Virus record (IMG/VR): IMGVR_UViG_3300030012_002628
Span: 1 to 52,184 of that record
DNA length: 52,184 nucleotides
Source of the DNA: a virus
Taxonomy: Duplodnaviria; Caudoviricetes
Reading direction: 5' to 3' (one strand)
A program made the translations under genes and the position numbers. Positions 115 through 31,700 of the stretch are shown piece by piece; positions within the stretch are counted from its first letter, which is position 1, and each line of letters opens with the position of its first letter. Below the pieces are notes generated by a model. That model was given only the letters and a program-made list of their open reading frames with translations, did no database searches and had not been told where the DNA came from.

Positions 115-3100
115 ATGGCTACTGTAACTTCATCACAACGAAAACTTACGCACACTTCTGGGACTTATCAGAGCAGTGGTAATATTACTGTAGGTGGTCA
201 TATAATTGTATCTGGTAATGTAGACGGCAGAGATGTCGCTTCTGATGGTTCAAAGCTGGATGGCATTGCTGCTAACGCAAACAATTACTCGCTACCACTT
301 GCCTCTTCTTCTACTAGAGGTGGTGTTAAGATTGGGTATTCCGAGAACGGAAAGAACTACCCAGTCGAACTCTCATCTGAGAAGATGTATGTAAACGTCC
401 CTTGGGTTGATACCAATACAACTTACTCAGTAGGAGATGGTGGACTTACTGAAAACAATTTTACCGACGCACTTAAAAATAAATTAGATGGAATTTCCGC
501 TGGTGCAGATGTAACGCCTACTTGGGTTCCGTCTAGTAATCCTAGTTACGCTACTCAATCGTATGTTACGACACAGATAAACAATCTAGTTGATGGTGCT
601 CCAGCAGCTCTAAATACTCTTAACGAGTTGGCAGCAGCAATTGATGATAATTCAAGTTATGCTTCCTCAATAACTTCCGCACTTTCGGGTAAGTTAGGAG
701 TAAGTGCCAAAGCTGCTGATTCAAACCTTCTTGATGGTATTGATAGTTCTGCATTCTTGAGAAGTAATGCAAACGATGATTTCTCAGGAACATTAAACTA
801 CACCCCTGACACTGGAACCATTCTGGCTGTCGATGGGCAAGCTATCCTTCAGAGGATGACTGCTAATGGTGCTATCACGATTGGTCATGACGATGCCGTT
901 ATCATTGCAGGTGGAGACACATCAACAGTATTAAATTCTAATATCAACAATGCAGGCGAAACCGTTTTTGTTGGAGCAGAAGGTGGATTCATTGCTTATG
1001 CATTTCCTAATAACAATACAGCTTGGAGTAATAGGAAAGAATTAAAATGGAATGGAACCGATCTTTCTGTCTTGGGCTACAATGTTTGGCATAGCAATAA
1101 CGATGGATCTGGTTCTGGGTTAGATGCGGATAAACTTGATGGCTTACACGCCTCATCTTTCAATCAAACAATTGGAACAGACACCGATCTTTCTGCCTCT
1201 GGGGCTAGTGTTATTTCTAGCATTAATGTTACTGATGGCGTTATTACATCGATGGGTACTAGGTCACTGACTTTGGCAAACCTTGGTTACACTGGAGAAA
1301 CGAATGCAACCGCAGATCAAACAGCAGGTGAGATTAAGACACTTCTACAGACTGTTGATGGTAGTGGATCTAATATAGATGCCGATTTATTAGATTCCAA
1401 ACATTTAGCAGACATCATACCCAAGCCTTCTCAAAGTGACTTTGCTGATGGAACTCTTGTAACAACATCAATCGATGCCAGCGTCACTAACGGTGAATCT
1501 TTTGTTATTGAGGTATCTGGTAAAAGTTACAGCTCATCGGTTCCTCCGCACATGGCTATTGCCCAAGGGTACATATATAATAACACCATTATAAATTTCT
1601 CTGGTGTTAATATTACTGGGAATACCTTTACAACTATTAAGGCTATGAACAATAACGGTTACCTATCTTTCTGGTGGCCGAGACACGCATATTGGAATGC
1701 CTATAATGTTCATGTTCGAAAGATGAACGGAACATCAACAGGGGGTGATAATGAAGTTACTTCTATTGCTAACTCAACAGAACCATCTGGGGCTACAAAG
1801 AAAGTAACAATTAACTTAGCTAAGACTTGGAACTCTTACAGCGATGGTTCTGGTTCTGGGTTAGATGCAGACAAACTTGATGGTTTACACGCTTCATCCT
1901 TTAACCAAGTAATTGGAACGGACGCTGACCTCAATACTTCTGGTTCTGCTATTATAGATAACATTAATGTTACTGATGGTGTTATTACATCGATGGGTAC
2001 TAGGTCGTTAACTTTGGCAAACCTTGGTTACACTGGAGAAACGAATGCAACCGCAGATCAGTCTGCTAGTGAGATTCTTAATCTTCTCAAGACTGTCGAT
2101 GGGTCTGGGTCTGGATTAGACGCAGACACACTTGATGGAGCGCAACCTAGTGCTTCTGCAAGTAATTCCACTATCGTTAAAAGACACAGTAGTGGTTATA
2201 TTTATGCTAATTATTTTAATACAACAGCAAATGACGTTAGCTCTGGAGTGACGAAAGTCATGGTTGAAACAGGCAACGACGGATTCATAAGACACGGAAG
2301 TGCAGCAGCAATTAGATCATTTATTAATGTTGAGTCTGGTGCGACAGCAGATCAATCAGCTAGTGAGATTCTTACTCTTCTCAAGACTGTAGATGGAGCA
2401 GGATCTGGTTTAGACGCAGACACTCTGGATGGGATTACATCCGCAAGAATTCCTTATGCTCTTACTGGTAGTAATGGAACAACTAACACATATACTGTTG
2501 ATGGTGGAATAGGGGCTAACAACATTACACGTTCGATGTTCTTTAGGGACAACGCACAAACTTTCGGTGCTCTAGGTATGCACATTACACACGCTACTAG
2601 CACCGCCTATGCTTTCCAGTTTGTTAATAATAGTTACTCCACTCCAAGTGCTCTTAAGGCACGGGTCAAAAATAATGGCACTTGGTCGAGTTCCGTAGAT
2701 ATTTGGAATAGTGGGAATGATGGTTCTGGTTCTGGGTTAGATGCAGACAAACTTGATGGTCAGCATGGGTCTCATTACTTAAATTATAATAATTTTAGTA
2801 ATACCCCTACAATTCCTACTAACAATAATCAGCTTTCCAACGGTGCTGGTTATGTAACATCAAGCGGTAATACTGTTATCGGAACAGACTCTGACATCAA
2901 TACGTCTGGTGCTACGGTTATAGACCAGTTGAACATGACAGATGGTGTCATAACTTCACATTCTACAAGGACACTGACTCTTGCAAACCTTGGTTATACT
3001 GGAGCGACTAATGCTAATAATTATGTTTTGCCATCCAGCATATCTTTAAACTCGCTAACTGTTGATAACAACAAGATTGATACTGATGGAACATTTGGAA

Positions 3101-10614: not shown

Positions 10615-11147
10615 GCAGAAGAAAATTACCCCAACACTTTAAAAGATCTAACGGTATGTTGGTCTTTACGCCTACTAGTGACCATGTCAAAGAGGCTTTT
10701 GAGCGTAGTGAAAAGCTAGGAGTTCTACCTAATTCTTTCACCAGAGGAGCGGGGCGTATGACTGGTTTCTTGGGTGAGGTTGCTTTTGAGTGTTTGTATC
10801 CTGAAGCTGTTTATGAAGGGGATGTGGCGTATACTCATGACTACGTGCTTGGTAAAAAGACGATAGACATAAAATCAAAAAGCTGTGCGGGAGTTCCTCA
10901 ACCCCACTACACAGCTTCTGTGAATTGTCCTGAAGGAAAGAAATTACCTGCTAAAGCTTATTTCTTTGTTCGCGTTCGTAAAGATTTCCAAAAAGCTTGG
11001 CTACTTGGGTGGGCCACAGCTCTTACTATTCAAAAAAGAGCTGAATACAAACTTCGTGGTGAGCCAGATGATTATGGGTTTACTTACAAAGTTGATGGAT
11101 ATCATCTTCCAATAGCTGCACTTAGAAAGGCTGGTTCTCTAAAGTAG
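10611..11147 (+). CDS. PD-(D/E)XK nuclease-fold protein
   Basis: GFLGEVAF...HD..LGKKTIDIKSK...YFFVRV...LLGW. Confidence 0.6.
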   Translation: MSRRKLPQHFKRSNGMLVFTPTSDHVKEAFERSEKLGVLPNSFTRGAGRMTGFLGEVAFECLYPEAVYEGDVAYTHDYVLGKKTIDIKSKSCAGVPQPHYTASVNCPEGKKLPAKAYFFVRVRKDFQKAWLLGWATALTIQKRAEYKLRGEPDDYGFTYKVDGYHLPIAALRKAGSLK

Positions 11148-13299
11148 TCTCCTCATAGTCAATGTCGAATGGGGAGGTAACATCTATTATCCATATCTTG
11201 CCACTTCCTTTACCCACAGACTTTATAGGTCTAGTAGTTTTACTATGCTTTCCAACATCCTCTAGATGAGATAAACCATTTCTAATAAAGTCAATCTTGT
11301 TGGATGCTCCTAATGGACGGCCACCATTATATGAGTGCAGAGCTACTTGAAGTTCTAATATTGTTCCCCGCCATGTAGCCATCTTTTCGTTCTGCTCTCT
11401 ACACGCTTTCGCGAAAAAGTCTATGAGTTCAGATACTTGAGATCGACTAGAGTTATCAAAGGCAGCGTAAGAAATACTCTTATCGATAAAGCTCTTAATA
11501 CCAAATCGATCATCGTCTAGTATCTCTACAGGAGGCTTCCACTCCATAAGCCATTTAGCAAAATGGGGTAACTCCTGTTCGATGATAGCTTCTAACTCTG
11601 CCTTTTTAGGAAAGTCAAAAGGTTTCTTGCAAACCTTAAACGCCATAAGTTTATCTTTGTTGCTAGAGTCCATAGTCGGCAGCACACTCATAGAGTTGGG
11701 ATCATCGTTAAGACTAACGATTATCCTGCCCGCCCAAGGAAGAGTAACTGCATCTGCATACTTGGCCATGAACTCGATTCTTGGATTAGCAACTCCACGC
11801 TTAATAAGCTCTGTAGCTTTACGTTGATCTTGGAAAGAAGCAGCACTAACTGTGTCATCAATAACCCAGCAAGCAGCTCTACCTAAGTCTTTATTAAACT
11901 TTGTTCCACCAGACAGGTAGTCACTTGCATCTGCGAATCCCCCCACAAGGGCTGCAATAATCTTATTAGATACAAGTGTTTTACCTCTTTTGGCAGGGCC
12001 AACTAAAATACAAGCCTGACCTTGATCCTCTTGGTTGTTGTAGAAAGCTTTGTAGTATCTTTGTAACCACCCAAAGAAATAATACTTACTCCGAATCTTC
12101 GTAGAATCTACAAAGAACTGATCGAAAAACATATTAAGCCAAGGCCACTTGTCAGGATCTCCATCAGATGCAGGTTCTATCGGACACACTGTAGCTGAGT
12201 TGAGGATCTGCAAACCGTTGTAGGAAACAATCCTTTCGTTTCTTCTAAAGACTACGGGGGCGATCTCATCAATTCTGTTCGTATTACTTATAAGAACAAT
12301 AGCTGCTTCAACTTCAGATACGTTTTCTCCTTTCTTGGGTCTCCCTCCTTTGAATCCTCTTTGCTTTAACTCTAATACCAATTGATCTCTAGGTATAGGT
12401 TTCGCTGTTCCATGTAACAGTTTAAAGAACTGTCTACCGTTAAACCAATACTCATCAAGAAGATCGCCCATCTTTTGCTCTTCAAAGTCTTTGACAAAGT
12501 CAGGGCCAAAAATATCTCTCCATGTTTTCCAAGCTGCGTCACGATCTGAATAAACAATCATGCCATCTTCAAATACCTGACAACCTTCTCTCTCAATCCC
12601 GTCATCGATCCAGAAGAGAGGGCCTCTTGAACCTACTTCAAAGTCTCCTATCCATCTGTTGGGGAATCTCTTTTCTACCTCCTCTGCAATAATATCAATC
12701 GGAATAGATGTATCCTTTGATTCTGGGGGCTTCTCTTTAGCTGCTTTAAATAAAGCTGTTTGAACAATAGAGCTAGGAATCTTACCACCCATCTTTACCC
12801 AATCTGTTCCTATCTCCATCAACTGAGAAGGGGCTTCTGACTTTTTGTCATACCCAGCGAAGATCTTGTGGTATTGAAGCATCTGCTTTAGATGCTTAAA
12901 GAATGGAGTTACTAGTGTGTAGTGGATAGACAGCGTCTCTTCTAATTCAAAGAACAACCGTATGTATCCACTATATGTCCTGCAATACCATGCTGGAAGA
13001 GCTTTCGGACACTTCGCATTGATGATGTCTTTTACATTCGGCCAATCAGGTGGGGCATCGAAGTCTGCTGGGATCGCGTGGATCTTACATATTTTGTTTT
13101 CCCCTTCAATTCGTGCATTTGGATTTATGCCCTCGAACCCTGTTAAGAAGGCATGATCTGTATCACTCTTAGCACACCATTCTCTATATAAAGCTTTTGA
13201 TTTAAAGTGGGGTATTGGTTTTACTTCGATCTCTGTTGGATCGTTTACTGTTATTAAAGCGTCTTTTGATTTTAAGTTTTTAAGGTATTTAATTTTCAT
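11122..13299 (-). CDS. Primase-helicase (primpol-like N-terminus plus P-loop NTPase)
   Basis: N-terminal ADFD and RTYSGYIRL; Walker A GPAKRGKT; Walker B VIDD; adjacent to the DNA polymerase. Confidence 0.75.
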   Translation of the reverse strand: MKIKYLKNLKSKDALITVNDPTEIEVKPIPHFKSKALYREWCAKSDTDHAFLTGFEGINPNARIEGENKICKIHAIPADFDAPPDWPNVKDIINAKCPKALPAWYCRTYSGYIRLFFELEETLSIHYTLVTPFFKHLKQMLQYHKIFAGYDKKSEAPSQLMEIGTDWVKMGGKIPSSIVQTALFKAAKEKPPESKDTSIPIDIIAEEVEKRFPNRWIGDFEVGSRGPLFWIDDGIEREGCQVFEDGMIVYSDRDAAWKTWRDIFGPDFVKDFEEQKMGDLLDEYWFNGRQFFKLLHGTAKPIPRDQLVLELKQRGFKGGRPKKGENVSEVEAAIVLISNTNRIDEIAPVVFRRNERIVSYNGLQILNSATVCPIEPASDGDPDKWPWLNMFFDQFFVDSTKIRSKYYFFGWLQRYYKAFYNNQEDQGQACILVGPAKRGKTLVSNKIIAALVGGFADASDYLSGGTKFNKDLGRAACWVIDDTVSAASFQDQRKATELIKRGVANPRIEFMAKYADAVTLPWAGRIIVSLNDDPNSMSVLPTMDSSNKDKLMAFKVCKKPFDFPKKAELEAIIEQELPHFAKWLMEWKPPVEILDDDRFGIKSFIDKSISYAAFDNSSRSQVSELIDFFAKACREQNEKMATWRGTILELQVALHSYNGGRPLGASNKIDFIRNGLSHLEDVGKHSKTTRPIKSVGKGSGKIWIIDVTSPFDIDYEETTLENQPF

Positions 13300-15089
13300 T
13301 TTTCATATCTGTCTTGTATTGATCCTTCTGCGTCTACGGGTATATCGTCAATCCATTTAGGGGGTTCCGACATAATTCTAATGACTTCTTCTAAAGTCTC
13401 TTGTGCTTTATCGGCATCCGATTCCACAACTAGTTCATCATGAACGTGCATAATTATTTTATGACCTGCTGCATCAACTCTTAGGAGCATATCAGAAAAG
13501 ATATCTCTCGCTAATGCTTGAGAGGCATTCTCTGCTACTAGACCTCCCCATAATCTGACGGCTGCATACTTGCCGTGACGAGGGACTTTAGCCGTGTATT
13601 GTGTGTTCTTTGGGTCTCCCCCTTTTTGCAGAGTCCCGTAATCTAAAACTCTCCCGCTTGGAAGTTTGACAGTGAATTCAGATTGAAGCTCATTGCCGTC
13701 TTTATCGTATCCTTTTGTAGCACGAGTAGATGCTGCAATATCTTCACTATAGGAGAACCAAAGATCCTTAATCTTCTTCATCTTGTTCCTGTAAGTATCC
13801 ACTCTTTTCTGAGCTTCCTTTTCTGTGATGTTAGACATACTCGCAAATCGTTTTGCTCCCGCCCCATAACCACAACCTAAGACCATCGCCTTAACAGCGT
13901 GTCGTTTTTCTGGGTCTTCTTTTTTAAGTATGCCATCCTCTTTATCCCACATCCCAAATCTGATGGCAAAGGCTTCGTAGATATCATCTGTGTTTTTAAT
14001 CTCCTCCATCATTTCGCGATCCTTAGCTAACCAGCAAAGTGTTCTTACTTCAATCTGAGAAAGGTCTACCACGATTAATTTTTTGTCAGGTTCGGGGCAA
14101 ATTAAATGGCGTAGGGTTACACCAAACATCTCATCCCTCGGTAAGTTCTGTAAATTGAGGTTACCCCCAGATCCACTAAATCTACCCGTGTGTGCTCCAA
14201 AATACATACATCCACCGTAATATCTACCGTCGGGCATGGTGGCGTAATCAAAGCTCTCTAGTTTCTTTTTGATGGAGTTTATTCTTCTCCAGTTCTTAAC
14301 AGCTCCTATCCACTTGTGTTGTTCGCTATGCTCCTTGATCCACTCTTGGGCATCTTCATCCGCTTCCGCGAGACTTACTGGTGGTTCAATACCAAGCAAT
14401 AAACACTGCTGATCAAAAGCTGCCCTACTAAGAAGGGGTTTCTCATCCAACCAAGGGATGTTTTCTTCGGCTTCAAATAAAGCTTTGTTGATTGTCTCTA
14501 ACTGTTTCTTTAGAAGTTCAGTATCAATTGGAATGCCTCTTTGAACTATCCTTCGATTTACCCGACTGATGTCCCTTTCAAACTGAGGCCATTTATCTTT
14601 AAGTGTCTCCCATAGCTTGAGACATAGTTCACTATCCTTGAGGGCATATTCACTGACCTCTTCTTTAAACTCTGGGGACATATCCTCCCATCGTTTACCA
14701 GACATATTGTCTCGTGTAGATTTGTCTACAGAGAGATTGAAGAGTTGAGCCGTGGATCCTTTTAATGATCTAGGTAACTTGCAATATGCTGCTAGGTCTG
14801 CAGTGCAGTGCCATTCTGCTGGTTCACAATTAGGCCACCAGTTACGGGATACACCATACAGGAACAAGGTTTCATCAAAGGAGGCATTGTGTGACAGCAC
14901 AATATTGCCATCCAACAAACTCCAATCAAAATCTTTCGGATGACCTACAAAGCTTGTCCCCTCTGTTCCAACGACGGATACCATGTAGGCATCGAAGTTG
15001 GGGTGACTAAAGTATCCCAAAACTCCTAGAGTTTTTATTGAGCATTCTTTGTCATAGTAGGTTTCGTAATCTAAAGCAAAAGTTTCCAT
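13296..15089 (-). CDS. DNA polymerase family A with 3'-5' exonuclease
   Basis: Exonuclease motifs DYET, HNASFD and YALKD; TGRFSG, NLQNLP, motif A DLSQIEVR, motif B R..VK...LGCGYG, motif C VHDE. Confidence 0.95.
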   Translation of the reverse strand: METFALDYETYYDKECSIKTLGVLGYFSHPNFDAYMVSVVGTEGTSFVGHPKDFDWSLLDGNIVLSHNASFDETLFLYGVSRNWWPNCEPAEWHCTADLAAYCKLPRSLKGSTAQLFNLSVDKSTRDNMSGKRWEDMSPEFKEEVSEYALKDSELCLKLWETLKDKWPQFERDISRVNRRIVQRGIPIDTELLKKQLETINKALFEAEENIPWLDEKPLLSRAAFDQQCLLLGIEPPVSLAEADEDAQEWIKEHSEQHKWIGAVKNWRRINSIKKKLESFDYATMPDGRYYGGCMYFGAHTGRFSGSGGNLNLQNLPRDEMFGVTLRHLICPEPDKKLIVVDLSQIEVRTLCWLAKDREMMEEIKNTDDIYEAFAIRFGMWDKEDGILKKEDPEKRHAVKAMVLGCGYGAGAKRFASMSNITEKEAQKRVDTYRNKMKKIKDLWFSYSEDIAASTRATKGYDKDGNELQSEFTVKLPSGRVLDYGTLQKGGDPKNTQYTAKVPRHGKYAAVRLWGGLVAENASQALARDIFSDMLLRVDAAGHKIIMHVHDELVVESDADKAQETLEEVIRIMSEPPKWIDDIPVDAEGSIQDRYEK

Positions 15090-15099
15090 AATTTAACTT

Positions 15100-15224
15100 T
15101 ACCCCGCCCCCAATTAGTGAGCAATGATGCTAATAGGGGACGGGGTATATGTTATTGGGCTTTTATGCGCTTACCCAAGGGCGGATGACTAACCAGTGTG
15201 ATATAAACACCGACGCATTACCAG
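15100..15224 (-). ncRNA. Candidate cis-regulatory structured RNA (pseudoknot plus hairpin) in the DNA polymerase leader
   Basis: Crossing stems AUGCGU/GCGCAU and UUGGGU/GCCCAA, inner stem CGGUGU/ACACUG, then a long GC hairpin 10 nt before the ATG. Confidence 0.6.
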
Positions 15225-15225
15225 A

Positions 15226-15447
15226 TTAATGTAGGCTGTTTCCTTCAACATAATCCTCTGTAGGAGCAAGTTCCAAAAAAGTCTCCTTATGGATATCCTG
15301 AAGATTCTTCTCAAGCCCTTGTAAAAGAATTTTATTAGCAGTCAAAGCAGTCTGTGAATTTTCCAGAACTGACTCTAACTCCTGAATCGTTTTCTTCATG
15401 GCTTTGATTTCAGCCTCATAAACTTCTTGGTGTGTAAGAGTAGCCAT
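15226..15447 (-). CDS. Hypothetical coiled-coil protein
   Basis: 73 aa with a heptad pattern, in the replication operon. Confidence 0.7.
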   Translation of the reverse strand: MATLTHQEVYEAEIKAMKKTIQELESVLENSQTALTANKILLQGLEKNLQDIHKETFLELAPTEDYVEGNSLH

Positions 15448-15448
15448 A

Positions 15449-16105
15449 TTACTGATTCATAAACCCTTCCACAAATGAGATTACTTCTTTGCTTGGCTCA
15501 TCTTGCGTAATAGCAAGAGAAGGTGCAAACCATGAATACTTACCTCTGGTGATAGCAGAGGAAGTAAGATTCCACAACCTAGTGTGAATTGGTGTAGTCT
15601 TGTTAAATACAGCAAAGGTAGTCAACCTTTTGAAGGTCTGCCTATAGGCATCCTTCGCTACATTAATGCGACCCATAGCGTAGTTCTTCTTACCTAGCGG
15701 AAGAGGGAAAGCCTCAACATCATCATCCCCCTCAAAGAGGAAAGTGATCTCAGCAAATTCAAGGAGGTTATACTCGCTATCCAAAGCTAGTTGATTCTTC
15801 TCTGCTTCAGACCCCGCAATTCTGGGGACATCGTCAGAGTCATAAGGGATATCCTCTCTCCATTGCTTTGTTGCAATCAAAGGAACAACTTTAATAGCCG
15901 TCTCTGGCTGGGCTAATACAATAGACTTATCTAGGACGATAGACCCGTAAGGAGCGGGTTCGCCATCGCGACAAGTAATGTCGCTAGTCTTTTGGACTAC
16001 GTTCACGCGAGGGATGTCAATATCCGAAGCGTCGATTGTGTCTGGCAGTGCTGCTGTTGACAGTGCATTGACAGGTTGGGTTGCTAGTTCAGTTTCTTTA
16101 CTCAT
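15449..16105 (-). CDS. Putative single-stranded DNA-binding protein
   Basis: 218 aa, DIDIPRVNVVQKTS motif, located between the exonuclease and the polymerase as phage SSBs usually are. Confidence 0.55.
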   Translation of the reverse strand: MSKETELATQPVNALSTAALPDTIDASDIDIPRVNVVQKTSDITCRDGEPAPYGSIVLDKSIVLAQPETAIKVVPLIATKQWREDIPYDSDDVPRIAGSEAEKNQLALDSEYNLLEFAEITFLFEGDDDVEAFPLPLGKKNYAMGRINVAKDAYRQTFKRLTTFAVFNKTTPIHTRLWNLTSSAITRGKYSWFAPSLAITQDEPSKEVISFVEGFMNQ

Positions 16106-16143
16106 GTTTCTAGTTTCTTGTTTCTAGTTTCTTGTTTCTTGTT
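16106..16143. repeat. Tandem heptamer GTTTCT(A/T), about 5.4 copies
   Basis: gtttcta gtttctt gtttcta gtttctt gtttctt gtt fills the spacer directly upstream of the SSB start codon. Confidence 0.9.
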
Positions 16144-16147
16144 ATCC

Positions 16148-17263
16148 TCAAGACAATGTATGCCTTGCGGGAGATTCTTCGATGATCCCTTGGTCATTGC
16201 ATCTCTGCATAAACTCATCGGATCTGTTTTGCTTTTGTCCCCTCTCGGCTTTGTCACCGATTGACTTCGCCACTTTCGCGAGAGGGATGGAAACTTGTTC
16301 TAAGACTTGATCGCTGTCCAATCCAAAGTCGTTAGCCAGCTTAATAAATTTCTTTTTGTCTGTAATGTTACGCCTACCCGCCATTTGTTTCAGGCGAAGG
16401 TTAGGGAACTCCAGACCTTCTTGAGCTAATTTGATTGCTCTTTTCTTAAATCCGTCCGCCCAATTGGTAACGATTTTTTGTATAGCCCACAGTTGCTCTA
16501 TAACTTCTGGGTCTTCCGTAGAATCGAGATCAACATCAGGAAGTTGTGGGTTAATTTTTTTAGCAACTTCTACAACAAGTCCCCCAAGAGCAGGGCAAAT
16601 GTCTTCAAACTTACAGAATCTACAATTAACCGTTGGCGTAAGCTCTCCCAATTCTGGAGTTCCATTATCCCACTTTGGCCTAACTCTTTCTGCTTCGAGT
16701 ATGACAGAAGAAAGATCGTCGATAAGGTCTTCTAATTCATCTCTACTAAAAGTGTCAGATAAGATTTCATTCCGTTGTGGGATGAAAAATACGAATTCAA
16801 TCTTTTCTAATTTAGGGAACCTCTGGAAACACCCTATTGTATAAGCACGAGCTTGATAATTATTTTTGGGAGTGTCGATCTTACTGATACCCGTTTTGTA
16901 GTCGATCAACACCCCCTCTGTTTCCCCATATATGCTGAGATGGTCACAGGTTCCAAAGGTAGAAGTTCCTTTCAATTCTATATCGAGGATAATTTCTGAG
17001 TGAGTCTCAGATAGATCTCTATCTTCGTAGTTCTTCAAATACTCAGTCTGGTCAGCAATGATTTCTTCGTAAATAGAAATCTCTTCTTCAGACTGTAGAT
17101 TAGATGGATCTAAAATTTCTATAGCTTCGTGGATACGAGTACCCATTTCAGCAGCAGCATTAGTACCTTCTCTACCTTTGTAGCCAGCGCAACCCGCACA
17201 GTATTTTAAGGAGGACGGAGAAAACTCAGCGTGTCCTCTGTCAGCGTGGTCTGGTATGTTCAT
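16148..17263 (-). CDS. DUF2800 / Cas4-like PD-(D/E)XK exonuclease
   Basis: HAEFSPSS..C, GT.IH, GTCD, IDYKTG, CRFC....CP; start set at ATG 17263 from promoter spacing. Confidence 0.85.
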   Translation of the reverse strand: MNIPDHADRGHAEFSPSSLKYCAGCAGYKGREGTNAAAEMGTRIHEAIEILDPSNLQSEEEISIYEEIIADQTEYLKNYEDRDLSETHSEIILDIELKGTSTFGTCDHLSIYGETEGVLIDYKTGISKIDTPKNNYQARAYTIGCFQRFPKLEKIEFVFFIPQRNEILSDTFSRDELEDLIDDLSSVILEAERVRPKWDNGTPELGELTPTVNCRFCKFEDICPALGGLVVEVAKKINPQLPDVDLDSTEDPEVIEQLWAIQKIVTNWADGFKKRAIKLAQEGLEFPNLRLKQMAGRRNITDKKKFIKLANDFGLDSDQVLEQVSIPLAKVAKSIGDKAERGQKQNRSDEFMQRCNDQGIIEESPARHTLS

Positions 17264-17270
17264 CAGACGC

Positions 17271-17299
17271 ACTGTGGAGCAAACCTAGAATTAGGTCAA
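17271..17299 (-). promoter_or_regulatory. sigma70-like leaderless promoter
   Basis: TTGACC-N17-CACAGT, 7 nt before ATG 17263. Confidence 0.5.
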
Positions 17300-17307
17300 T
17301 TGTTTTT

Positions 17308-18935: not shown

Positions 18936-18964
18936 TTTTTTCTGATTTATTGTTTATAATAATT

Positions 18965-20752
18965 ATGGCTTTAAACGAACAAAGGAGCAAGCAGTTACTG
19001 GAACCAAGAATAGATCCTACAACCAAAAGTATGGATGTCGGTGGTTTTAAAATTCCACCAACTAGCTTGCTTACTGCACTTCTATACGGGTTTGCAAACC
19101 ACGAAGTTGTCGCAGCGAGGGAGTATTATTTTTGGAGAATATGCGATGAGCTATGGAATAATGATGAGTTGCCAGAAAAATTAATGGTTCGTCATCCTTG
19201 GGCTACGCTCATGATTCGCGCAGCTCTAGAGAATAAATACCTTGCTGTTGGTGGATCTGCTTCTTCTGGTAAGTCTCACACTATGGCAGCTTGGGGTATC
19301 ATTAACTGGTTATGCCAACCACAAGATACACTGGTTCTAATGACATCCACCACGCTTCGCGAAGCCCGTAAACGAATCTGGGGTAGTGTAATGTCTTTGC
19401 TGTCTGTGATTGATGATGCACCAATCAAGATTCGGGATTCAATTGGAAACGCAGCTTACATTAATGAGAAAGGAACACTCATCGAAAGAGCGGGGCTTTC
19501 CTTGATTTCCGCAGAAAAGAGCAAGACTAAAGAAGCTGTCGGAAAATTTATTGGTATCAAACAGAAAAGAGTGATCCTGATAGGGGATGAGCTTTCAGAA
19601 CTTTCTGAAGCTATCTTAAATGCAGGACTTACAAACCTTTCTAAAAACCCATCATTCCAGATGATAGGAATGAGTAACCCTAATAGCAGGTTTGATGCAT
19701 TCGGTATTTGGTCTACGCCCAAAGATGGTTGGGATAGTGTGGATACAAACCTTGATGATGAATGGGATACAAAGTGGCAAGGGAAATATCTACGCTTAGA
19801 CGGGGAAAAATCTCCGAATATTCTGGCGGGGGAAACTGTTTATCCTTGGCTACCAACGGAGGAAAAACTCGTTGAAGACAAAGCTTTACTGGGAGTCGAA
19901 AGCAGGGGGTATATGCGAATGGTCAGGGCGGTCTTTTTCGACAGTGATGAGACCACAGGCATATATACTGAGAATGAGATCACATCTAGTGGAGCCATGA
20001 AGAAAGTAGAGTGGCAAGGGACACCTGTAAATCTATGTGGTATTGACCCTGCTTTTACAAACGGTGGAGATAGAACAATTTTATACACTGCTAAATGTGG
20101 CTATGATACTGGCGGTCAATATGTTATAGAGTTTGGTGAGGCCATTCACTTAAACGACGATGCCACAAACAAAGCAGTTCCAAGAACTTATCAAATAGTT
20201 CAGCAGATAAAAGATAAGTGCTTGAAACTAAAGATCTTGCCAGAGAATGTAAGCGTTGATGCCACGGGAGCGGGTGCTCCTTTCTGTGATGTTCTGGCAG
20301 GAGAGTGGTCAAACAAGTTCATGCGTATTTCGTTTGGGGGAAAAGCGAGTGATAAACGTGTTAGTGCTAATAGCCCAAAAGTTGGTTTAGATTTGTATGT
20401 AAACCGAGTGTCAGAGCTTTGGTTCGTGGGAAAAGAATTGATGAGAACAAAGCAAATCTTCGGAATCAATTCAGATCTAGCCCAAGAAATAACTGAAAGA
20501 AACTACGACATGGTAAAAAGTGGAAGTCTCCGCATGAAGATTGAATCAAAGCCAGAGTTCAAAGCTAGATTTGGTAGGAGTCCTGACTTAGCAGACGCAG
20601 CCTTTTTAGCCTTAGATTGTGCAAGGCAAAGGCTGGGATTAGTAGCGGTTGACCCACCCGACACGACAAATTCTGCAATGCCTTATAGAAGAACGACTAT
20701 AAAAACTTTAAGTAGTGCTTTACAAAACGCTGAGGCTACCCTCATCGATTGA
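18965..20752 (+). CDS. terL: Terminase large subunit
   Basis: Walker A GSASSGKS, Walker B LIGDE, MSNP coupling motif, nuclease motifs GIDPA..GGD, VDATG.G and SPDLADA. Confidence 0.92.
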   Translation: MALNEQRSKQLLEPRIDPTTKSMDVGGFKIPPTSLLTALLYGFANHEVVAAREYYFWRICDELWNNDELPEKLMVRHPWATLMIRAALENKYLAVGGSASSGKSHTMAAWGIINWLCQPQDTLVLMTSTTLREARKRIWGSVMSLLSVIDDAPIKIRDSIGNAAYINEKGTLIERAGLSLISAEKSKTKEAVGKFIGIKQKRVILIGDELSELSEAILNAGLTNLSKNPSFQMIGMSNPNSRFDAFGIWSTPKDGWDSVDTNLDDEWDTKWQGKYLRLDGEKSPNILAGETVYPWLPTEEKLVEDKALLGVESRGYMRMVRAVFFDSDETTGIYTENEITSSGAMKKVEWQGTPVNLCGIDPAFTNGGDRTILYTAKCGYDTGGQYVIEFGEAIHLNDDATNKAVPRTYQIVQQIKDKCLKLKILPENVSVDATGAGAPFCDVLAGEWSNKFMRISFGGKASDKRVSANSPKVGLDLYVNRVSELWFVGKELMRTKQIFGINSDLAQEITERNYDMVKSGSLRMKIESKPEFKARFGRSPDLADAAFLALDCARQRLGLVAVDPPDTTNSAMPYRRTTIKTLSSALQNAEATLID

Positions 20753-22771: not shown

Positions 22772-25700
22772 ATGTCAGACCCAAGCGAAACCAAACCGAC
22801 AGGCTCATTTAACCCAACGCCATACGATATATGGGCCACTCAAAATTCCTTTGAAAATGAATTAGAGGGGAGGACTAAACACCTAGATCATCTCCGCTTA
22901 GAGTATATCAAAGCAGGGAAGTATGATGAGGAAATGGAAGGTCTTTTCCAAGAAGAGTTTGAAAACTCTTTGATCGACAATAAAATATTAGACCCCCTCA
23001 ACGAAGCAGAAGTTGGTGAAGCTGTTCTAAGTTTTTCAGGTGTTCTCCCTTCTAATGATAAAGACGTTCTTTTTATTAAGGACAACATGGCTGAAGGAAG
23101 TTCAATTATGGACTTTGAAGAAGGGGAACAGGAAAAAATTCTACGATATGCAAAAGCTTTAGAGACAGGACAGGAGATACCTGAAGACATTAATGTTAAC
23201 GAAGTTCATGAAATTGCTCGTCAAAAAAGACAGAACTTCATTACAGAATTATACGAAAACGATCAGCTAGGGGCAGGTGTTTATTACACTAAAGAAGGAC
23301 AGCGTATTTTTCTTGGTGGGAAAATTGACGAGAATTCTACGGAAGCGGATGTCCTTGAGCAAGGTAGAGATTTCGGTGTAGTCCCTAGAGATGTTTTTAC
23401 TCTAAGAAAATTTAAAGAAGTCCAAGCAGATAAGAATGGCTTGGAGTTTTATCAAGTAGATCAAAGGCAGAGGGCAGAACAAAAAATTCTTCCTTTTCTA
23501 GACCCTAAAGATGATCTCAGAGATGAAAAGATTAGAGCACGGTTTGATGCTCTCGCTACTAGCTTGGGGAAAGAGAAGTCTTGGGGTATGCTCCGCAAAG
23601 GCTTTGATTCTACTGGTGAAGTATTAACTTGGGCAGGATCAAATATAAGAGAGGGTTGGAACTGGTTGACTTTTGATGAGGAAGAAAAGAAAGAGTCTGA
23701 GGATTACCAAAGATATGAGGCTTTGCGGGAAGAATATGAGGATGAGGTAGAAGAAACAAGACAAGAACTTATAGCAGAATTATCTGAGAGAACGGGTATC
23801 CGTGGAGAAGTCTTAGAAGATGTTGTTGATGATATGGTTGTAGAGATTGCAGCCAATGGATCAGAAACTTTAGACCCTACTCTTATCTTTACGGATGATG
23901 AAGATGATCTAAAACAAAATGTTATTCGAAGAAACTACAAGGGGACTTTTGTTCAACCAGCTATGGCTCTCAAGCCAGAGATGTTTAGAAAAGCTCTTAA
24001 ACAGTCTGGATTTAGTGAGGAAGAAATTGAGATAGAGGACACAAAAAGACAGGCGGAAAACGAATTGTTAGCTTCCACTCGCAGTAAAATTTTAAGGGAA
24101 GACGAGAATTATCAAGACAAGTTTGAAGCTGCTGAATTGGATGGAAGACAAGCAGGGCTTACTCAAGCAGAGATACTTGAGAAATTTGTAAAGGAAGAAG
24201 ATCCCAACTTGGGGTTGGCGGGTATTGGTCAAAGTATTGGGCAAAGTTTTTCTACTCTATTTTACGGGGTGGGTGCTTTGTTTGGTTCGGAGTATGGAAA
24301 AGAAGGACTCCTACAGAATGCCAAAGACCAAGCTCATCTAAATCAGATGAGAGAAATCTTTGGTCAAGATGCAGGAATGGGGCAACAAATATTAGAGCAG
24401 GTTGCCCCACTTATAGTTGATGGTGCGATTACCTTTACGGCAGGGCTTCTTGCCGTTCCTTCAGGTGGAACTTCGGTAGCTGCAGCAGCGGGTTACTTCA
24501 CGGCAAAAACAAGTGCGACTGCCACAGCTAGAGCGGTATTGAAAAATACTTTTAACACTGCTTTGAAGCAGCAAATCAAACGAGATGCTTCAGGTAAGCT
24601 AATCAAAGAAACCACAGGACAAGCTGTAAAGAGATTACAGGCAGCAGGAACATTAAAAGGTTTGTCTAACCGTGAAATGATTTCTGCGGTTAAAAACTAC
24701 AACAGTAAACTAGCTAAGTCACTGGGAATTGGAACGGCTACGTTTGTTCCCGCAGCCATGCGTTCAGGTAGTATGACGTATGGTGCTGTCTACAAAACTA
24801 TAACTGATGACTTTACAAATAAGTATCAAGTTAATGGTGAATGGGTAGAGGGTTGGAGTGAAGAAAGGGTAAAAGAAGAAGCCCACAAAGCAGGTTTTGA
24901 GGCGATGATAACTGCGGGTACAACTACAGGTCTTATAACCGCTGCAATGGGTAAGATAGGTAACGGTATGTTCGGGGGTGTTGAGAATGCGTTCCTTGCA
25001 GGAGTCAGCCTTAAACAACTAAAAGTAGCTACCGATAGAATGGTGAGTCGAGTCTCTTCAGACGAGGCTTTCTTAAAGGCGATGACCGATGCTGTTGCAT
25101 CAACAATGAAAACAGGTTTGATCGGTACATCAATGCGAATAGGTAAGAGTGGTATTGGTGAAGGAATAGAAGAAGGTATTGATGAATTTGCGAACACAAT
25201 CATCCAAGACGCTTGGACAGACAAAGATACTTCTTTCTTAGAAAAAGCAACGGGTGCTTGGCATGGTGCTAAGATGGGTTTCTTTTTAGGAGCTGGTGCT
25301 CCCGCTATCAGTAAGGGTGTAAAAAACTTAGCTCCTGTAAGGGGGGTAGATGCTCAAGCTATGCAAGAAGCAGAGCAAACAGTTGATACTGAGTTCAGGA
25401 AATTGTTAAAAGCATCGGGTGATCTAGAGCGTTTTGAAGAACTAGAAGCGACAGCTCCTAACACTCATGCGGAGGTTATTAGGCAAGTTAGAGCTAAGTA
25501 CGCAAAAGAAGAAGAGGCTGAGACTGAGACAGCTCCAGACCCTGAAGAAGCGAAACCAACTGAACAGGAAGTTGCAGAAGAAGCAGAGCAGCTAAAGAGA
25601 GATCTTGAGGCAAATCAAAAAGAAGATGACAACCAAAAGATCATCAATGATTCTAAAGAAGAGGGAAGAACTAAAGCCGAATCCTCTCCTATAGTCACGG

Positions 25701-28700
25701 CTAGTGAGGCTGTTAATAGCGTTACCGAAACCGACACTAATCAGGCTTCCGCTAATGCTGATGTCACCAACAGCAATCCATCTGCTAGGCCCCCAAGAAC
25801 TCCTCAACAGAAGTATCAAGACACAGTCAATGACATAGAAGTTTTAGAAAGAAGATACAACGTACAGATGGCAGCTCTTGAAGAGCTTCCGCCAGAGTTA
25901 CGAGACAAGAGGCGAAACGAAATTGAAGCAGCAGTAAAAGCTGGTCGTATGCTTGACCCAGACACAGCAGGTGAACTTATTGCTCAAGCAAACAAAGACA
26001 GGGAAAAAGAAATAGCGGAAGAAGCTAAACCTGCCAAGGTAACAAAGAAAGATTTAGATAAGTTAGAAGAGGTAATTGAACAAGGATTCCCAGTTGCTGA
26101 TATTAAAAATCACCTAGAACAATTGGGTCTTAACCTCGAAAGAACAGATGAGAAATATCTTCGAGCTGTAGAAAAAGTAATCAAAGAACGGATTGCCGAA
26201 AGATACCCGACATTAAACCCCAAAAGACAACAAGGTGGGGTAAGACTACCAAACACTTTAGCTCCTTCGGGGACAGTCGTAATTGATAAAGACGGGCGGG
26301 GTGTATTTAATAATGATCCTGCAGGGATGCTTACTTTGTTGCAAAACAATGTTGCTATTCCTTTAACTGAAGATCAAGCGACGAACCCTAATTTAAACAA
26401 ATCATTTGTAGTAGAACAAATAGGAACTGATTACTTTGTTTCCGATATCATGATCCCTGTAAAAGGAGGACTGGTCTCGGCTAAGACTCCAGTAACAAAG
26501 ATCGCGGTTCACGAAACAAATTACACACCAGTTAAGGACAAGATAAGAAGAGTAAACACTCTTAAAAACACGGTAGATTTAAATGATGTCAAAGACATTA
26601 AGATCGTAAGCCCGTTCCGTGTTGCTTCAGGAAAGAAGCCGACAAAGATAAGTTTGGGTGAGCTTCTCGTAGAGGCTAAAAATTTACCAGCACTTAGAAA
26701 GTTTTTAGCTCAAGATTCTATACCTACTTTAAGTAAAGATTATTTAGACGCTGCTGCTATAACGATGAGTTTAGATCTGCAAGAGCAGATTTATAACCAA
26801 GCCAAATCTCTCTCCCAAACTCAACCTACCACCTCATTAAAGAAGGAGGAGAATGCACTAGCCTTTGTAAGAGAGGAATATGGATCACTATATCCTGAGT
26901 TGATAAAGGATAAGTCGATATCAGAGATTATAAATATAGGTAATGAGGTTGATGCAGGGGCAGTTCCTTTTGAGAATCTTAGTAAAGAACAAAGAGGAGC
27001 ACTCGAAATAAGAAACGCATACCTTAGATTGACTGAGCAAAGTCCATCTTTTGTTTTAAATTTAGAAACATCTGCTATCAAGAATGCTAGTTTCTTTAAC
27101 AAGGTAGAATCAGAAAGGAACTCAAAATCTATTCGTGATGTAGCCACTCTAATTGATCCCGATTCAGATATTCATAAGCGTCCAGACTTGATGGATGCAG
27201 AGAAGCAAAAAGAAGATCACTTTATCCCCCCCGCTGTTACAACGATCCCACCTATTGCGGAATCAAAACTAGCTGCTTTTATCTCTTCCAAAATTGATGA
27301 CGTAGCAACCGCGATTAGGTTAGATAGCCGTCTCCGAAGAGATGTAAAAGATCTGCTTAACAATGAGTATCATAATGGGAAGAAGGTAGCCACCAAATAT
27401 TCAGCAGAACAAGTAGCCGTAGAGCTTGTTCATTTCTTAGCTTCAAGGGGTGGAACAAATAAACCAGCATCAGTTCTAGAACAGAAACTCAGTAGCCGTA
27501 ATCTGGATGTCATTAACCCTGAATATAAGTTAGGGCAGGACATGAAAGATGCTCTTACTTTGTTGGGTGTTACCAGTCCTTCATTGCAGGGTTCGTTAAA
27601 TACCGATGCTTCCTTCTACACTTTAATAGAGTCTCAACTACAAGGATTAGTTGGGCCAGATGTCATGCTTTCGTATGGGGATGTTAAGGCTTTCTATACG
27701 CAAGTTAGAAAAGGAGCTGCTGCTTACAAGAAGAGAGCGATAAATGACGGACGCAGCAGAAGAAAGATCATCAAAGATAACCTCGAAGAGATAGATGAGT
27801 TAGGATTGCGAGATGATGATCCTCAATCTGTAATTGATGCTCTCGAAGAGATTGCTGAGTCAGGTGTTAAACCACTTAGGGTTTTAGCAAAAGCTCTACT
27901 TCGGAATAAAGACTTCATACGCTCAATAAAATTCGTCATAGACGGCACTCCTGCGGACTTTTCGGGGCTATATTATGTTGATGGTAACGGGAATAGAACT
28001 GTACTAATTAATACAAATAGGTCTGGAGCAAGAGGTGTAGCGGATACTTTAATCCACGAGTATCTCCATGCGTTTACTAATGACATTCTCAATGCACCAC
28101 CAGAAAGTAGAACACCTGCTCAGAATGAAGCAATTGCCAACCTTGAAGAGATACTGAGGCTCGCAAAAGAGAAAGCCCGTAAGTCTGGTAAAGCTAACTT
28201 AGAATATGGTACTTCAAACCTAGATGAGTTCTTAACTCATATATTAACTGATCCTCAGTTCCAAAGATTTCTCAATGGCATCATACCTGCGAAGGGTAAA
28301 CTCAACCTCTTCCAAAAAGCTATTGATGCTTTAGCTAAATTGATTCCTTTCGTTAAGAGGAAAGAATTAAAAATAGCTCTTGGGCAAGCACTTGATCTTA
28401 CTCAAAGGGCAGATATCCCACAGCCCTCAACTAAATCAGGGTTTGCGAGTCAGGTTGCAGGAAGCATTCACAGGGGTCAGTCTGAACTCCACGATATGTC
28501 TAAGGACATGGGCATGGCAGAGCAATCAGCCATCAACGAAAAGTTGGAGGAAAGGGCTAAAGAAGTTATTGAGTTTGCTATGGGTTATGTCCCAAGCGAA
28601 CTCAACATCGTTGTTGATGAAGCAAACCCAGAGATTGCTAGTGTTGATAGCACTACAGGAGCTATCGTTTTAAATCCAAAAAGAGCAGCACTCTACTTAG

Positions 28701-31700
28701 CCGAGCAAGGGGCAGATGGGATGGATGCTCAAAGGAGACAACACGCCCTTGGAATTATTATAAATAAAGCAGTCGGTAGAGCAGCAGCAGATGCGATGAT
28801 TACTGATGCTCAGTATGCAGACATAACTAAGTCCATGACGGACTCAGAATTCGAGGCAGAGATTAGAGAAAACTATCCCTTGGATCAGCAAGAAGCAGCT
28901 TTTCAAAGACTTAGAAGTTCCGACCCAGAGGTCTCTGCTACAGAGAGGTTCGACTTAGCAAAGAAAGCGATTGCTAGGCACACAGAGCTGTCCACTACGG
29001 GATCAACAACAGCTCAACAGATTGCTTTCCTTAGAACGAATCCTTCTTTGATTCCTCTATTCATAACTTACATGAAAGCCTTCCTCAGTAAACTCACATA
29101 TCACAGGACATTGAAAGATGTTTCTCCTGAGATGAGGAAAGCAGTTAATAATACTGTAAGAGAGATCAGGGCTTTGTCTCTGAACTACAGGCCCGCTGAC
29201 AGTATCATGACCCACAATCCTCGCAACCCTTATGCAGTTGTGGAGCAACTTATGCAGCAAGCTATTGATACTAATATGCTAGAGCCGACTGCTAAAACTG
29301 ATAGTGCTAGTTTACGAAATAGATTAATAGAACAAACCTCTCCTACCCCTGTTGTTTTAGGACAAGAGAGTGAGGCTCCTACCCCCGATACACCCTCTCA
29401 ATTTAGTCAAGACTCTAAGATTCCTTCTTTCCTCAACGAAGTTGAGATGCAAGAAAAGGATATTAATAACTGGCTTGAGGTGCTTGATGTCCCTCTGACT
29501 GAGTTCAGTGAAGACTACGAGTTTGATAAGATGGGCAAGATACGAAGAGGGTTATACAAAACCTTTGTGCGTAAAGCTGACAAAAGAGTTGTTAACTTCT
29601 ACGACCAGAACAAAGCCTTTGTTAGGGAGACAAAAGGTCTCGTTGAAAAGCTGCAACAGAAGCACAACAGAATACTTAAAAGAGAAAACGAAAGACTCAG
29701 CACTGTAACAGGACAAGAAACAGGGAACATCCCTGCCGAACTTATAGCTAGAGCTTCAGGAACTAACGAGGGATCAAACTTAACAGAACCTCAAAAAGAT
29801 ATTGTTGATGCAGAGTATAATGCAGCTATCGCTGAAGCTAATAGAAAGTCGGGTGCTGAAAAAGATGACGCACTTGCTCTGGCTCAGATTAAGAAAGATA
29901 AAAAGATTTTAGAACTACGGGAAAAGAATCGTAAACAACAGTTCGCTAGGAGAGATGCAGCTCTTGATGATTTGTTAAAGATATCTCCCGATATGTACAA
30001 CCTCGTTTTAGAAATGAGGCAACTTCAAGATCAGCTCTCAAAGAAGGCGATGGAAATCTTCGGGCCTACTATGAAAGAAGGAGATTTGAAGATGGCTTTT
30101 GATTTCAACAGAGGTCTGTACCTGACTAGGTCATATAGAATGTTTGAAGACCGTAACTTTGCCAAACAAGTTAAAGAGTCTGATGAATATGCGGATGTTC
30201 GTGAACGAGCAGCAGCTTACTTCTTTGAGCAATTGAAGAAACAAAGAGTTCAGCAGTTGCAGGATACTGAAGCTCTAACTAAAGAGCAAGCTGAAGCTAA
30301 AGTGAGGGATGAAATGGTTGCTAAAAATACTAAAATGCAATCACAAGCCTCCGCTATGGTGGACGATTTCATCGACGGATATGCACGGGCGGAAGCCAAA
30401 AAGAAGTTTGAGCAATCGCAACGAACATTCGGGGAGCAGGATTTAGTGTTACAGGATGCAGGATTCAGTGAAACCGATCCCCTTAAAAAGATTGTCGAAT
30501 CAATCAATGATAAGAAAAACATACCTGAACCCATCAGGGAATTACTCGGAGAGTATGGAGAAGACACAGGCATTTATAATCTCAGCTACTCTCTGAACCA
30601 CACAGCTAGTTTACTTTCTAATCAGGCGTTCTTTAATAAACTCAAAGCATTAGGGACTGGCGTTAATCCAGAGACTGGGGAAGTCGAATCTGATAATCCT
30701 TGGATGGTTAGTTCAGAACAATATTTTGAAGACAGAGCGAGACCAAAAGCAGATAGAAAATATTCTGGTTGGGTAGAGCTAGTTGATCTAAGTAGTGAAA
30801 CTAATCCCCTAGCAGGGATGTATGTCCCAGAACAAGTGGCCTCCAACATAACAGATCTTTTGGGTGGCAAGAAGAAAGCGGACATCACAGATCCACTGAA
30901 TGAACGGGCAGAATTGCAGGGGAAAATAATGCGAGGAACTAAAAAAGCGGTGGGTCTATCCCTTGCTTACAAGACGCTTGGGTCTCCTGCTTTCTACATA
31001 AGAAACATAATTGGTAACGCTTTGTTCTTCGGGCCTATGCAAGGGTATCCTGCTCATAGAGTTATGGGAGATCTCTTCAAGGATGTTAAAGGAGCTAATG
31101 TTCCTTACCTTACTAAAAACCCTGACTCTATTTTCTACCAAGTAGGGGGGTCAGAGTTGAGTTTCAAACTAATGGAACTTAGATCTAGAAATGTTTACGG
31201 TGATGAGCTTGAAGTTTCACAACTCCAAGACCTGTTGGAGGGAAAGACATCCTACGCAAGTTTGCAAAAGGATCTGGATAAAGTAGCAGCAGCCTCTAAT
31301 TTTATTGCGGGTCTTAATAAGAAGAAAGGGCCTATCAAAGTTCCAGAGGAACATATCGAAACCTTGGCAAAGTTGGGGGTCAATGTGACTTCAGCGGGGC
31401 TTCTTCCATTCAAAGCAATTAAAGAAGCGAACGCAATACTTCTACAAACAGGTGGAAAACTTGCTTCTGCTGCTGATGGTTTCTTCAAAGTTGGTCTCTA
31501 TGATTTCGAGATGCAGACTTTAACTAAAGCTGCAAAGCACGAGATAGAAAAGGGTGAGATTAACGGAAAGTATGCAAAGCTCTTAGATGAGAATGGGGAA
31601 CCTACTAACACCATGAAGGACATGGCTGCGAATATCGTAAAAGATACAGCTCAGTCATACAGTAGGGCCTTACCGATTATCAAAGATTTAACAGATAGTA

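Follow-up and report, generated by a model that had tools for sequence, protein, structure and literature searches.

RNA folds with two crossing helices and invariant unpaired bases are mostly ligand binders or catalysts, and they are rarely idle. One small H-type pseudoknot is the preQ1-I riboswitch (RF00522), whose 3' loop is rich in A. The 3' strand of its pseudoknot adjoins the ribosome-binding site or a terminator, and the folded state is off. The SAM-V riboswitch, like the element described here, is marine. Among phage RNAs, the operators of T4 genes 32 and 43 are structured leaders ahead of replication genes, each bound by the protein that it controls, and the gene 32 leader is a pseudoknot. 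The put RNA of phage HK022 acts in cis from a position between an early ORF and a terminator; it is formed by two plain stem-loops, and its known examples come from one phage group. Phages also frequently carry small ribozymes.

Here we describe an RNA motif of about 75 nt in the leader of a DNA polymerase gene on a viral record of 52,184 bp with an estimated completeness of 88% (the whole stretch analysed, hereafter the window). It is a new family of cis-acting structured RNAs, located almost only on viral contigs among the copies found. The motif occurs widely among uncultured marine phages and hardly at all in the cell genomes searched, and it stands once per record at the gate of replication or recombination genes.

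With SAM-II (RF00521) and SAM-V (RF01826), the motif shares an H-type pseudoknot in a leader and an A-rich strand after the first stem. However, neither covariance model matches it. Its first loop holds a whole hairpin, a joiner of 10-14 nt and an extra helix (P0), its second stem varies freely, and no methionine or SAM metabolism genes were found downstream of it. The likeness to these two classes drawn in the preliminary description of the locus therefore extends to the H-type topology and no further. PreQ1-I has the H-type pseudoknot and the A-rich 3' loop in common with the motif, which may also resemble it in being off when folded. In contrast to preQ1-I, the motif is about twice the size and has a second crossing helix; the preQ1-I model does not match, and no queuosine genes lie downstream. 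The T4 gene 32 and 43 operators are likewise structured leaders before phage replication genes, but our motif also occurs in phages without the polymerase and ahead of three kinds of ssDNA-binding protein genes. HK022 put shares the cis position after an ORF and before a hairpin, whereas the motif is a double pseudoknot and is itself a terminator-like stem in many copies.

The motif in the window

The replication module of the window runs on the minus strand from about 18935 down to 11122, and the motif sits in a 136-nt gap within it (Table 1). The 73-aa ORF upstream of the motif (15226-15447) matched no Pfam family. Sequence and strand layout are as first described, and the long GC-rich hairpin, separated by 10 nt from the ATG at 15089, is also present in the MFE fold. 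The motif has more parts than were first drawn: it has the additional 3-bp helix P0, a PK stem with a 14-nt loop and, in about a quarter of the unique copies listed, an outer helix. The P0 register in the window was set by eye and is one base off the covariance model alignment, which shows two non-standard pairs. The match to the covariance model R1 is the sole one in the 52,184-bp record.

Table 1. Features of the motif and its surroundings in the window (all on the minus strand).
Feature	Position	Strand	Details
DUF2800 / PD-(D/E)XK nuclease	16148-17272	-	replication module
Protein with weak Pam3 gp34 likeness	15449-16105	-	replication module
73-aa ORF, upstream of motif	15226-15447	-	TAA stop 3 nt ahead of P0
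Whole conserved RNA motif, ~75 nt	15150-15225	-	covariance model R1 match, 66.9 bits, E 4.9e-15
P0 5' strand GGU	15220-15222	-	pairs with GCC 15180-15182
P1 5' strand UGCGU	15213-15217	-	internal loop between P0 and hairpin
P1a hairpin CGGUGU-uuauauc-ACACUG	15194-15212	-	15212-15207 pairs with 15199-15194
Unpaired joiner GUUAGUCAUCC	15183-15193	-	conserved columns in alignments A1 and A2; consensus GUYA..CAUC
P0 3' strand GCC	15180-15182	-	partner of 15220-15222
PK 5' strand UUGGG	15174-15178	-	pairs with 15155-15159
PK loop, 14 nt: UAA + GCGCA + UAAAAG	15160-15173	-	includes P1 3' strand
P1 3' strand GCGCA	15166-15170	-	pairs with UGCGU 15217-15213
PK 3' strand CCCAA	15155-15159	-	partner of UUGGG 15178-15174
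GC-rich hairpin UACCCCGUCCCC..GGGGGCGGGGUA	15100-15147	-	MFE fold; followed by AAAGUUAAAUU, then ATG
Family-A DNA polymerase ORF, 597 aa	13296-15089	-	Pfam DNA_pol_A, E 2.1e-36
DUF5906 protein	11122-13299	-	downstream of polymerase

The polymerase leader of the window has an MFE of -45.2 kcal/mol (z = -2.57); of 200 shuffles, 3 were equally stable. This leader alone is only mildly unusual, and therefore the case rests on comparison with relatives.

For positions 13300-17300 of the window, a search for RNA data sets holding the sequence listed none. Metatranscriptome contigs from four runs map only to positions 15675-15828 and 16105-16143 of the window and leave the motif uncovered, which says nothing on its expression. 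One of them, a 157-nt contig found in two marine metatranscriptome runs of one sample, equals the gp34-like gene at 15675-15828 with one difference; DNA carry-over is possible. Elsewhere, the window holds a single ORF of 3,353 aa (22772-32833, plus strand) without a PHROG match at E<=1e-5, flanked by a terminase-like gene (18950-20752) and a region of small ORFs.

Homologues and conservation

A search with the polymerase protein identified 41 viral loci with 58-96% identity. The RNA core was present in all 36 loci with a complete polymerase leader, and its 3' part in one leader cut by the contig end. The 14-nt PK loop was invariant across the 36 complete leaders. Since this set was found via the protein, the constancy of the core in polymerase leaders is not imposed by a search pattern.

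Further copies were collected with RNA search patterns, which force part of the core to look invariant, and the samples are dominated by a few lineages. A 17-letter DNA pattern of the core matched at least 120 stretches, two strict full-length patterns matched 62 and 46, and a relaxed pattern, admitting copies without GG before UAA, matched at least 120. In total, at least 276 motif copies (157 + 119) lie on IMG/VR viral contigs, at least 195 of them unique. The covariance model R1 gave one match in each of 100 newer loci. Fifteen stretches that matched the 17-letter pattern and had no 5' half were chance matches, none of them below E 0.001 with R1 (one, L083, reached 23 bits and E 0.007). A sixteenth match without the 5' half, L010, is a genuine copy that is truncated where its locus ends.

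Covariation supports a double pseudoknot

The motif is a conserved structured RNA, and each of its four helices covaries in both sequence sets examined. The first set, A2, is a MAFFT alignment of 88 unique sequences; the second, A3, holds 77 distinct sequences fitted to a covariance model without P1. In A2, 93.1% of cells were paired, compared to 35-48% with the partners slid by 1-3 columns, and the covariation score was 0.487 against at most 0.138 (0 of 500 shuffles reached 0.487). A3 gave 96.3% paired cells against 38-46% when slid, and a score of 0.542 against at most 0.110. RNAalifold, unaided, predicted P1a and PK.

P1 was paired in 99.5% (A2) and 99.7% (A3) of cells; the A3 count is independent of the model because P1 is absent from it. 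One P1 pair swaps between CG and UA (47/41 in A2, 44/32 in A3), and another was found as GC 56, GU 22, AU 8 and UG 2 in A2. PK was paired in 90.2% (A2) and 97.8% (A3), with both sides changed in 5 of 6 pairs. Thus, the crossing of P1 and PK first drawn from the window alone is real, and both helices covary in both sets. Of the six pairs first assigned to P1 (AUGCGU/GCGCAU), five are retained and the sixth, A-U, is found in only 32 of 88 sequences. The five inner PK pairs (UUGGG/CCCAA) also hold, while the closing U.G pair occurs in 80 of 88 and, because it never varies, is uninformative either way. The suggested extension of PK by GUUA/UAAC was dropped: it paired in 47.0% of cells against a shuffle mean of 47.2%, and 315 of 500 shuffles were as high.

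P0 pairs GGN with NCC and was paired in 91.3% (A2) and 99.6% (A3) of cells. Its third pair varies widely, as UG 40, UA 17, CG 11 and GC 9 in A2, and as GC 23, UG 20, UA 19, AU 7, CG 5, GU 2 and one other in A3. P1a was paired in 91.5% (A2), with both sides changed in 4 of 6 pairs. Its conserved base pairs are C-G, G.U and G-C; its distal part ranges from short stems to long extended hairpins. The P1a G.U pair, which had been noted as working only on the coding strand, was invariant in both sets (88/88 and 77/77). This invariance, together with the frequent G.U pairs elsewhere, places the structure on the coding strand.

The strands follow the order a, b, (c c'), a', d, b', d', so that P1 (b/b') crosses both P0 (a/a') and PK (d/d'). 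Across the family, the PK loop UAA-YCRCA-UAAAAG pairs with UGYGG, which forms P1. In some copies the 5' flank additionally pairs with the bases just after PK. This outer helix has at least 6 bp in 44 of the 191 unique copies listed, compared to 3.9% when flanks were paired with the wrong partner, and is made of 23 different helix sequences; it is absent from the window. With the outer helix counted in, the fold is a three-way junction, and its two arms are joined by five base pairs that link an internal loop to a hairpin loop. With loops of 3 and 6 nt, P1 can form within one molecule. The covariation is also compatible with P1 forming between molecules, in the style of the phi29 pRNA ring, which we regard as remote.

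The conserved bases concentrate where helices meet, and the distal parts of P1a and PK are free to vary. An invariant junction with variable distal parts is the usual pattern of an aptamer, which supports a riboswitch.

Two other proposals were examined and dropped. A helix GGCGG/UCGCC has G, A or C as its middle base against an invariant partner (by eye). Readthrough or frameshifting of the upstream ORF does not fit hairpin lengths that vary by non-multiples of three, and no extended frame is kept.

Genes around the motif

A family-A polymerase is the commonest downstream gene, following 60 of the 195 unique copies listed; for the other 135, blastx found none within 900 nt downstream. Nucleases (PDDEXK_14 and PDDEXK_5, of the PD-(D/E)XK kind) and ssDNA-binding genes (Enc34-type and DUF3127; three different ssDNA-binding families in all) also follow the motif, as do genes for an AAA_24 recombination ATPase, DUF2303, DUF1599, an FkbM methyltransferase and DUF7694. 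Further downstream genes are a weak Terminase_6N match, several small ORFs without assignment and, once, a tRNA. A replication/recombination theme is shared by PolA, Enc34, DUF3127, PD-(D/E)XK, AAA_24, DUF2303 and DUF1599. In 150 of the 195 unique copies listed, a same-strand ORF of 60 aa or more (or a cut one of 40 aa or more) starts within 400 nt, and these ORFs belong to many unrelated protein clusters.

The preliminary description had also considered an autogenous operator bound by the DNA polymerase. Its frequent place ahead of family-A polymerase genes, and its presence in every complete leader of polymerases that are 58-96% identical, are what such an operator would predict. However, PF00476 was absent from all five motif-bearing viral records examined (63-210 kb), each of which has exactly one motif copy, as does the window. 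Because motif-bearing records, three of them 99-100% complete, have no family-A polymerase, and given the 135 listed copies not followed by one, we reject the polymerase operator. It is contradicted as a general mechanism, and we give it hardly any credence.

The single copy per record, its usual place within the replication/recombination module and the repeat-rich or GC-rich non-coding DNA beside some copies could also be expected of an RNA with an origin-related or priming role in the replication module. Against this, start codons lie 4-25 nt away in many lineages, some copies stand directly before a terminase-like gene, and no sign of any origin was seen in this analysis. We consider an origin transcript very improbable.

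Upstream, 96 of 103 unique copies have a same-strand ORF ending within 200 nt. The ORF ends at most 20 nt from P0 in 82 of these 96, leaving no room for a promoter and suggesting a tie to the upstream frame; in the other 14 the gap is 24-168 nt. For the remaining 7 unique copies, no ORF was found in the 200 nt upstream, and five of these copies lie close to the end of their contig. In one large group, the motif follows an HTH-HNH endonuclease gene and precedes about 700 nt of non-coding DNA.

Candidate expression platforms downstream of the fold

In at least 46 of the 60 unique polymerase leaders, a hairpin of -15 kcal/mol or below starts 0-12 nt after PK, and 34 of these 46 have at least four U in the next nine bases. 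The ATG lies 8-16 nt beyond the hairpin, without a Shine-Dalgarno sequence. In the window, the tail of the hairpin at 15100-15147, AAAGUUAAAUU, is A-rich and has no U-run, and the terminator scan lists no site there. We found no conserved alternative pairing between motif and hairpin in the polymerase leaders, including the window (by eye). The sole candidate, GGGUA/UACCC, was missing in several lineages by eye.

A motif that immediately precedes a strong hairpin within an operon could be the binding site of a conserved protein or machine, such as RNA polymerase (with put-like readthrough) or a ribosomal or RNA-decay component, and would then need no alternative pairing. Conservation in phages of apparently different host phyla also fits a universal host target. 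However, an antiterminator contradicts itself where PK is itself the stem before the U-run, and no protein gene consistently adjoins the motif. Such a binding site is, in our judgment, an improbable explanation.

Outside the polymerase leaders, 133 unique copies with enough sequence were listed. Of these, 53 have a start codon at most 25 nt from the last paired base (start codons of ORFs of at least 60 aa, with spacings of 4-25 nt), 51 have a U-run directly after the fold, and 23 have both. PK or the outer helix abuts the U-run or the start codon in 81 of the 133. For copies of the PDDEXK_14 group, the last base of the outer helix is the A of the AUG, and the 5' strand of this helix contains the UAG stop of the upstream ORF. 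In a fused type, the U-run is joined to PK, which has 6-7 bp and the 14-nt loop; by itself such a stem would terminate only weakly, unless its loop were held by P1. Among the listed copies, 28 further non-polymerase ones have an ORF at a distance of 26-400 nt. For 24 non-polymerase copies and 1 polymerase copy, there is no ORF of 60 aa or more within 400 nt, which counts against a riboswitch.

These layouts also bear on a constitutive structural device without sensing, which would strengthen a terminator, protect the 3' end of the upstream message or couple translation. For coupling, a ribosome that arrives at the stop codon close by would open the outer helix along with P0 and P1. The short distance between upstream stop and P0 in most copies, the UAG stop in the outer helix of the PDDEXK_14 group, the U-run directly after the fold in 51 listed copies and the place of the HNH group at the end of a transcription unit all agree with such a device. 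But a plain hairpin would suffice for it, and the many invariant unpaired bases across unrelated phages demand more. One copy per record is ill-suited to a general terminator or insulator, and the 14 copies with longer upstream gaps, like the 7 without a near upstream ORF, do not fit. We consider the constitutive device unlikely.

Two contigs place the motif beside tRNA genes. In L089, a tRNA gene (2973-3044, minus strand; Rfam tRNA, 72 bits) starts a few bases after the motif U-run, and in L105 an apparent tRNA 3' end (~2552-2610, minus strand, by eye) lies about 15 nt upstream of the motif. In L141, two copies (1570-1645 and 2030-2104, minus strand; one of them divergent and found with R1) flank a 119-aa ORF and lie between a DUF3799 nuclease gene and a DUF3127 gene. 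Positions of this kind, intergenic whatever the genes, together with a compact double pseudoknot and many invariant bases, could belong to a new class of self-cleaving ribozymes that cut polycistronic phage transcripts, in line with the frequency of small ribozymes in phages. On the other side, no Rfam ribozyme family matches, and the tight spacing to start codons or U-runs across many gene clusters indicates expression control over cutting. We hold a ribozyme to be decidedly improbable, slightly more so than a protein-binding site. The HDV-like, twister and pistol layouts were set aside by eye, as their strand order differs.

A proposed riboswitch-like element, off when folded

Taken together, we tentatively propose a new riboswitch-like element that is off when folded, and we put this reading a little below an even balance. 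It starts from the fold, its conservation, the single copy per record and the surrounding layouts. The invariant core with variable outer parts, the one copy per record and the U-run or AUG set against the fold lead us to infer a sensor whose folded state is off; sensing, the off-when-folded logic and termination itself belong to this inference. The riboswitch-like character first proposed for the window thus gains from the conserved, covarying core, the variable outer parts and the several kinds of candidate expression platform.

In the fold, arm 1 consists of P0, the internal loop and the variable P1a hairpin, and arm 2 of the PK stem with its 14-nt loop. Five bases of the internal loop pair with five bases of the PK loop as P1, giving an H-type pseudoknot; the A-rich strand UAAAAG can lie along P1, and the outer helix closes the whole fold in some lineages. 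In the proposed mechanism, a small molecule or other universal factor may lock the core. PK, with the outer helix if present, would then form right up to the U-run or start codon, and the folded RNA would end transcription or keep the ribosome out. The polymerase leaders, that of the window among them, have a GC hairpin of their own behind the motif, with a tail rich in U and A.

Several candidate platforms behind one core, with ORFs in many unrelated clusters, speak for the riboswitch reading, and so do the two tandem copies about 25 nt apart in L150 (20-198, minus strand), the strong hairpins of the polymerase leaders, the replication/recombination theme of the downstream genes and the two MAG contigs described below. 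Against it, the mixed downstream set, including a terminase-like gene, a methyltransferase and a tRNA, points to no ligand; the polymerase leaders show no conserved alternative pairing of motif and hairpin, the window hairpin has no U-run, most copies stand close behind an upstream ORF, and the HNH group stands ahead of about 700 nt of non-coding DNA. The dominance of a few lineages in the samples, and the part of the core that the search patterns fix, count against it too.

A more specific version of the riboswitch reading is possible and more doubtful. In it, the motif would be a double-pseudoknot aptamer, present once per genome, that forms the first riboswitch class confined to viruses, senses a small molecule reflecting the state of the infected cell and shuts off replication and recombination genes. 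The signal could be, for example, a nucleotide-derived metabolite or signal.

If the motif is a sensor, it offers a route to what a phage measures before committing to DNA copying, and a new aptamer scaffold. If it is self-cleaving or binds RNA polymerase, it would be a new class of that kind.

Novelty and distribution

A scan of the whole window with the 4227 models of Rfam 15, which include SAM-II, SAM-V, preQ1-I/II/III, twister, pistol, hatchet, hammerhead, HDV-like and phage pRNA, gave no match at gathering scores. At E<=10, positions 14900-15450 had only five snoRNA/miRNA matches of 12-17 bits, against cut-offs of 40-171, and at E<=1 seven other loci had nothing at the motif. Literature searches with topic terms and sequence strings, judged by title and abstract, found no description of the motif. 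As far as these searches can tell, the element is undescribed, as first suggested.

A 2023 catalogue (PMC10690425) lists 10,006 candidate structured RNAs from viral sequences and screened IMG/VR. The passages of PMC10690425 examined describe the T4 gene 32 operator and no fold of the present kind, and the word 'polymerase' does not occur in its main text. Since IMG/VR holds the motif family, the motif may be among the unnamed entries of this catalogue.

In 50,697 records of cultured phages, blastn found no match to the motif region of the window or to a copy of the motif that scored highly, and tblastn with the polymerase in cultured phages yielded only relatives below 60% identity (best listed, about 26-30%). 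Among cellular genomes, one per species (185,579 species), the strict pattern gave 2 matches, in a Verrucomicrobiota MAG and in an Altibacter (Flavobacteriaceae) MAG. The latter lies on a 24.5-kb contig with the polymerase layout seen in the window. The relaxed pattern, searched in 401 genomes of the family of this Altibacter seed, found the seed only. The two MAG contigs hint at hosts from different phyla, and therefore at a universal partner.

Other features near the motif

Between outer helix and start codon, L195, L234, L257, L211 and relatives carry a perfect palindrome of about 16 nt, which has the look of an operator or of a second hairpin that covers the ribosome-binding region. Short GTTAG-type direct repeats stand just upstream of the motif in L046, L152, L058 and L066, and repeated shared-loop hairpins just downstream of it (phage contig of about 109 kb).

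The stretch of about 700 nt behind the motif in the HNH group is conserved in L047 (5280-6000, plus strand), L052, L096, L121 and others. It has a G-poor, C-rich start followed by long G-runs and C-runs; an origin, a site for packaging or one for Rho loading are possible roles. Small endonuclease genes often adjoin the motif, with HNH upstream in the L047 group and PDDEXK_14 and PDDEXK_5 downstream in the L201 and L246 groups. We speculate that the invariant motif DNA may serve as a target of free-standing homing endonucleases.
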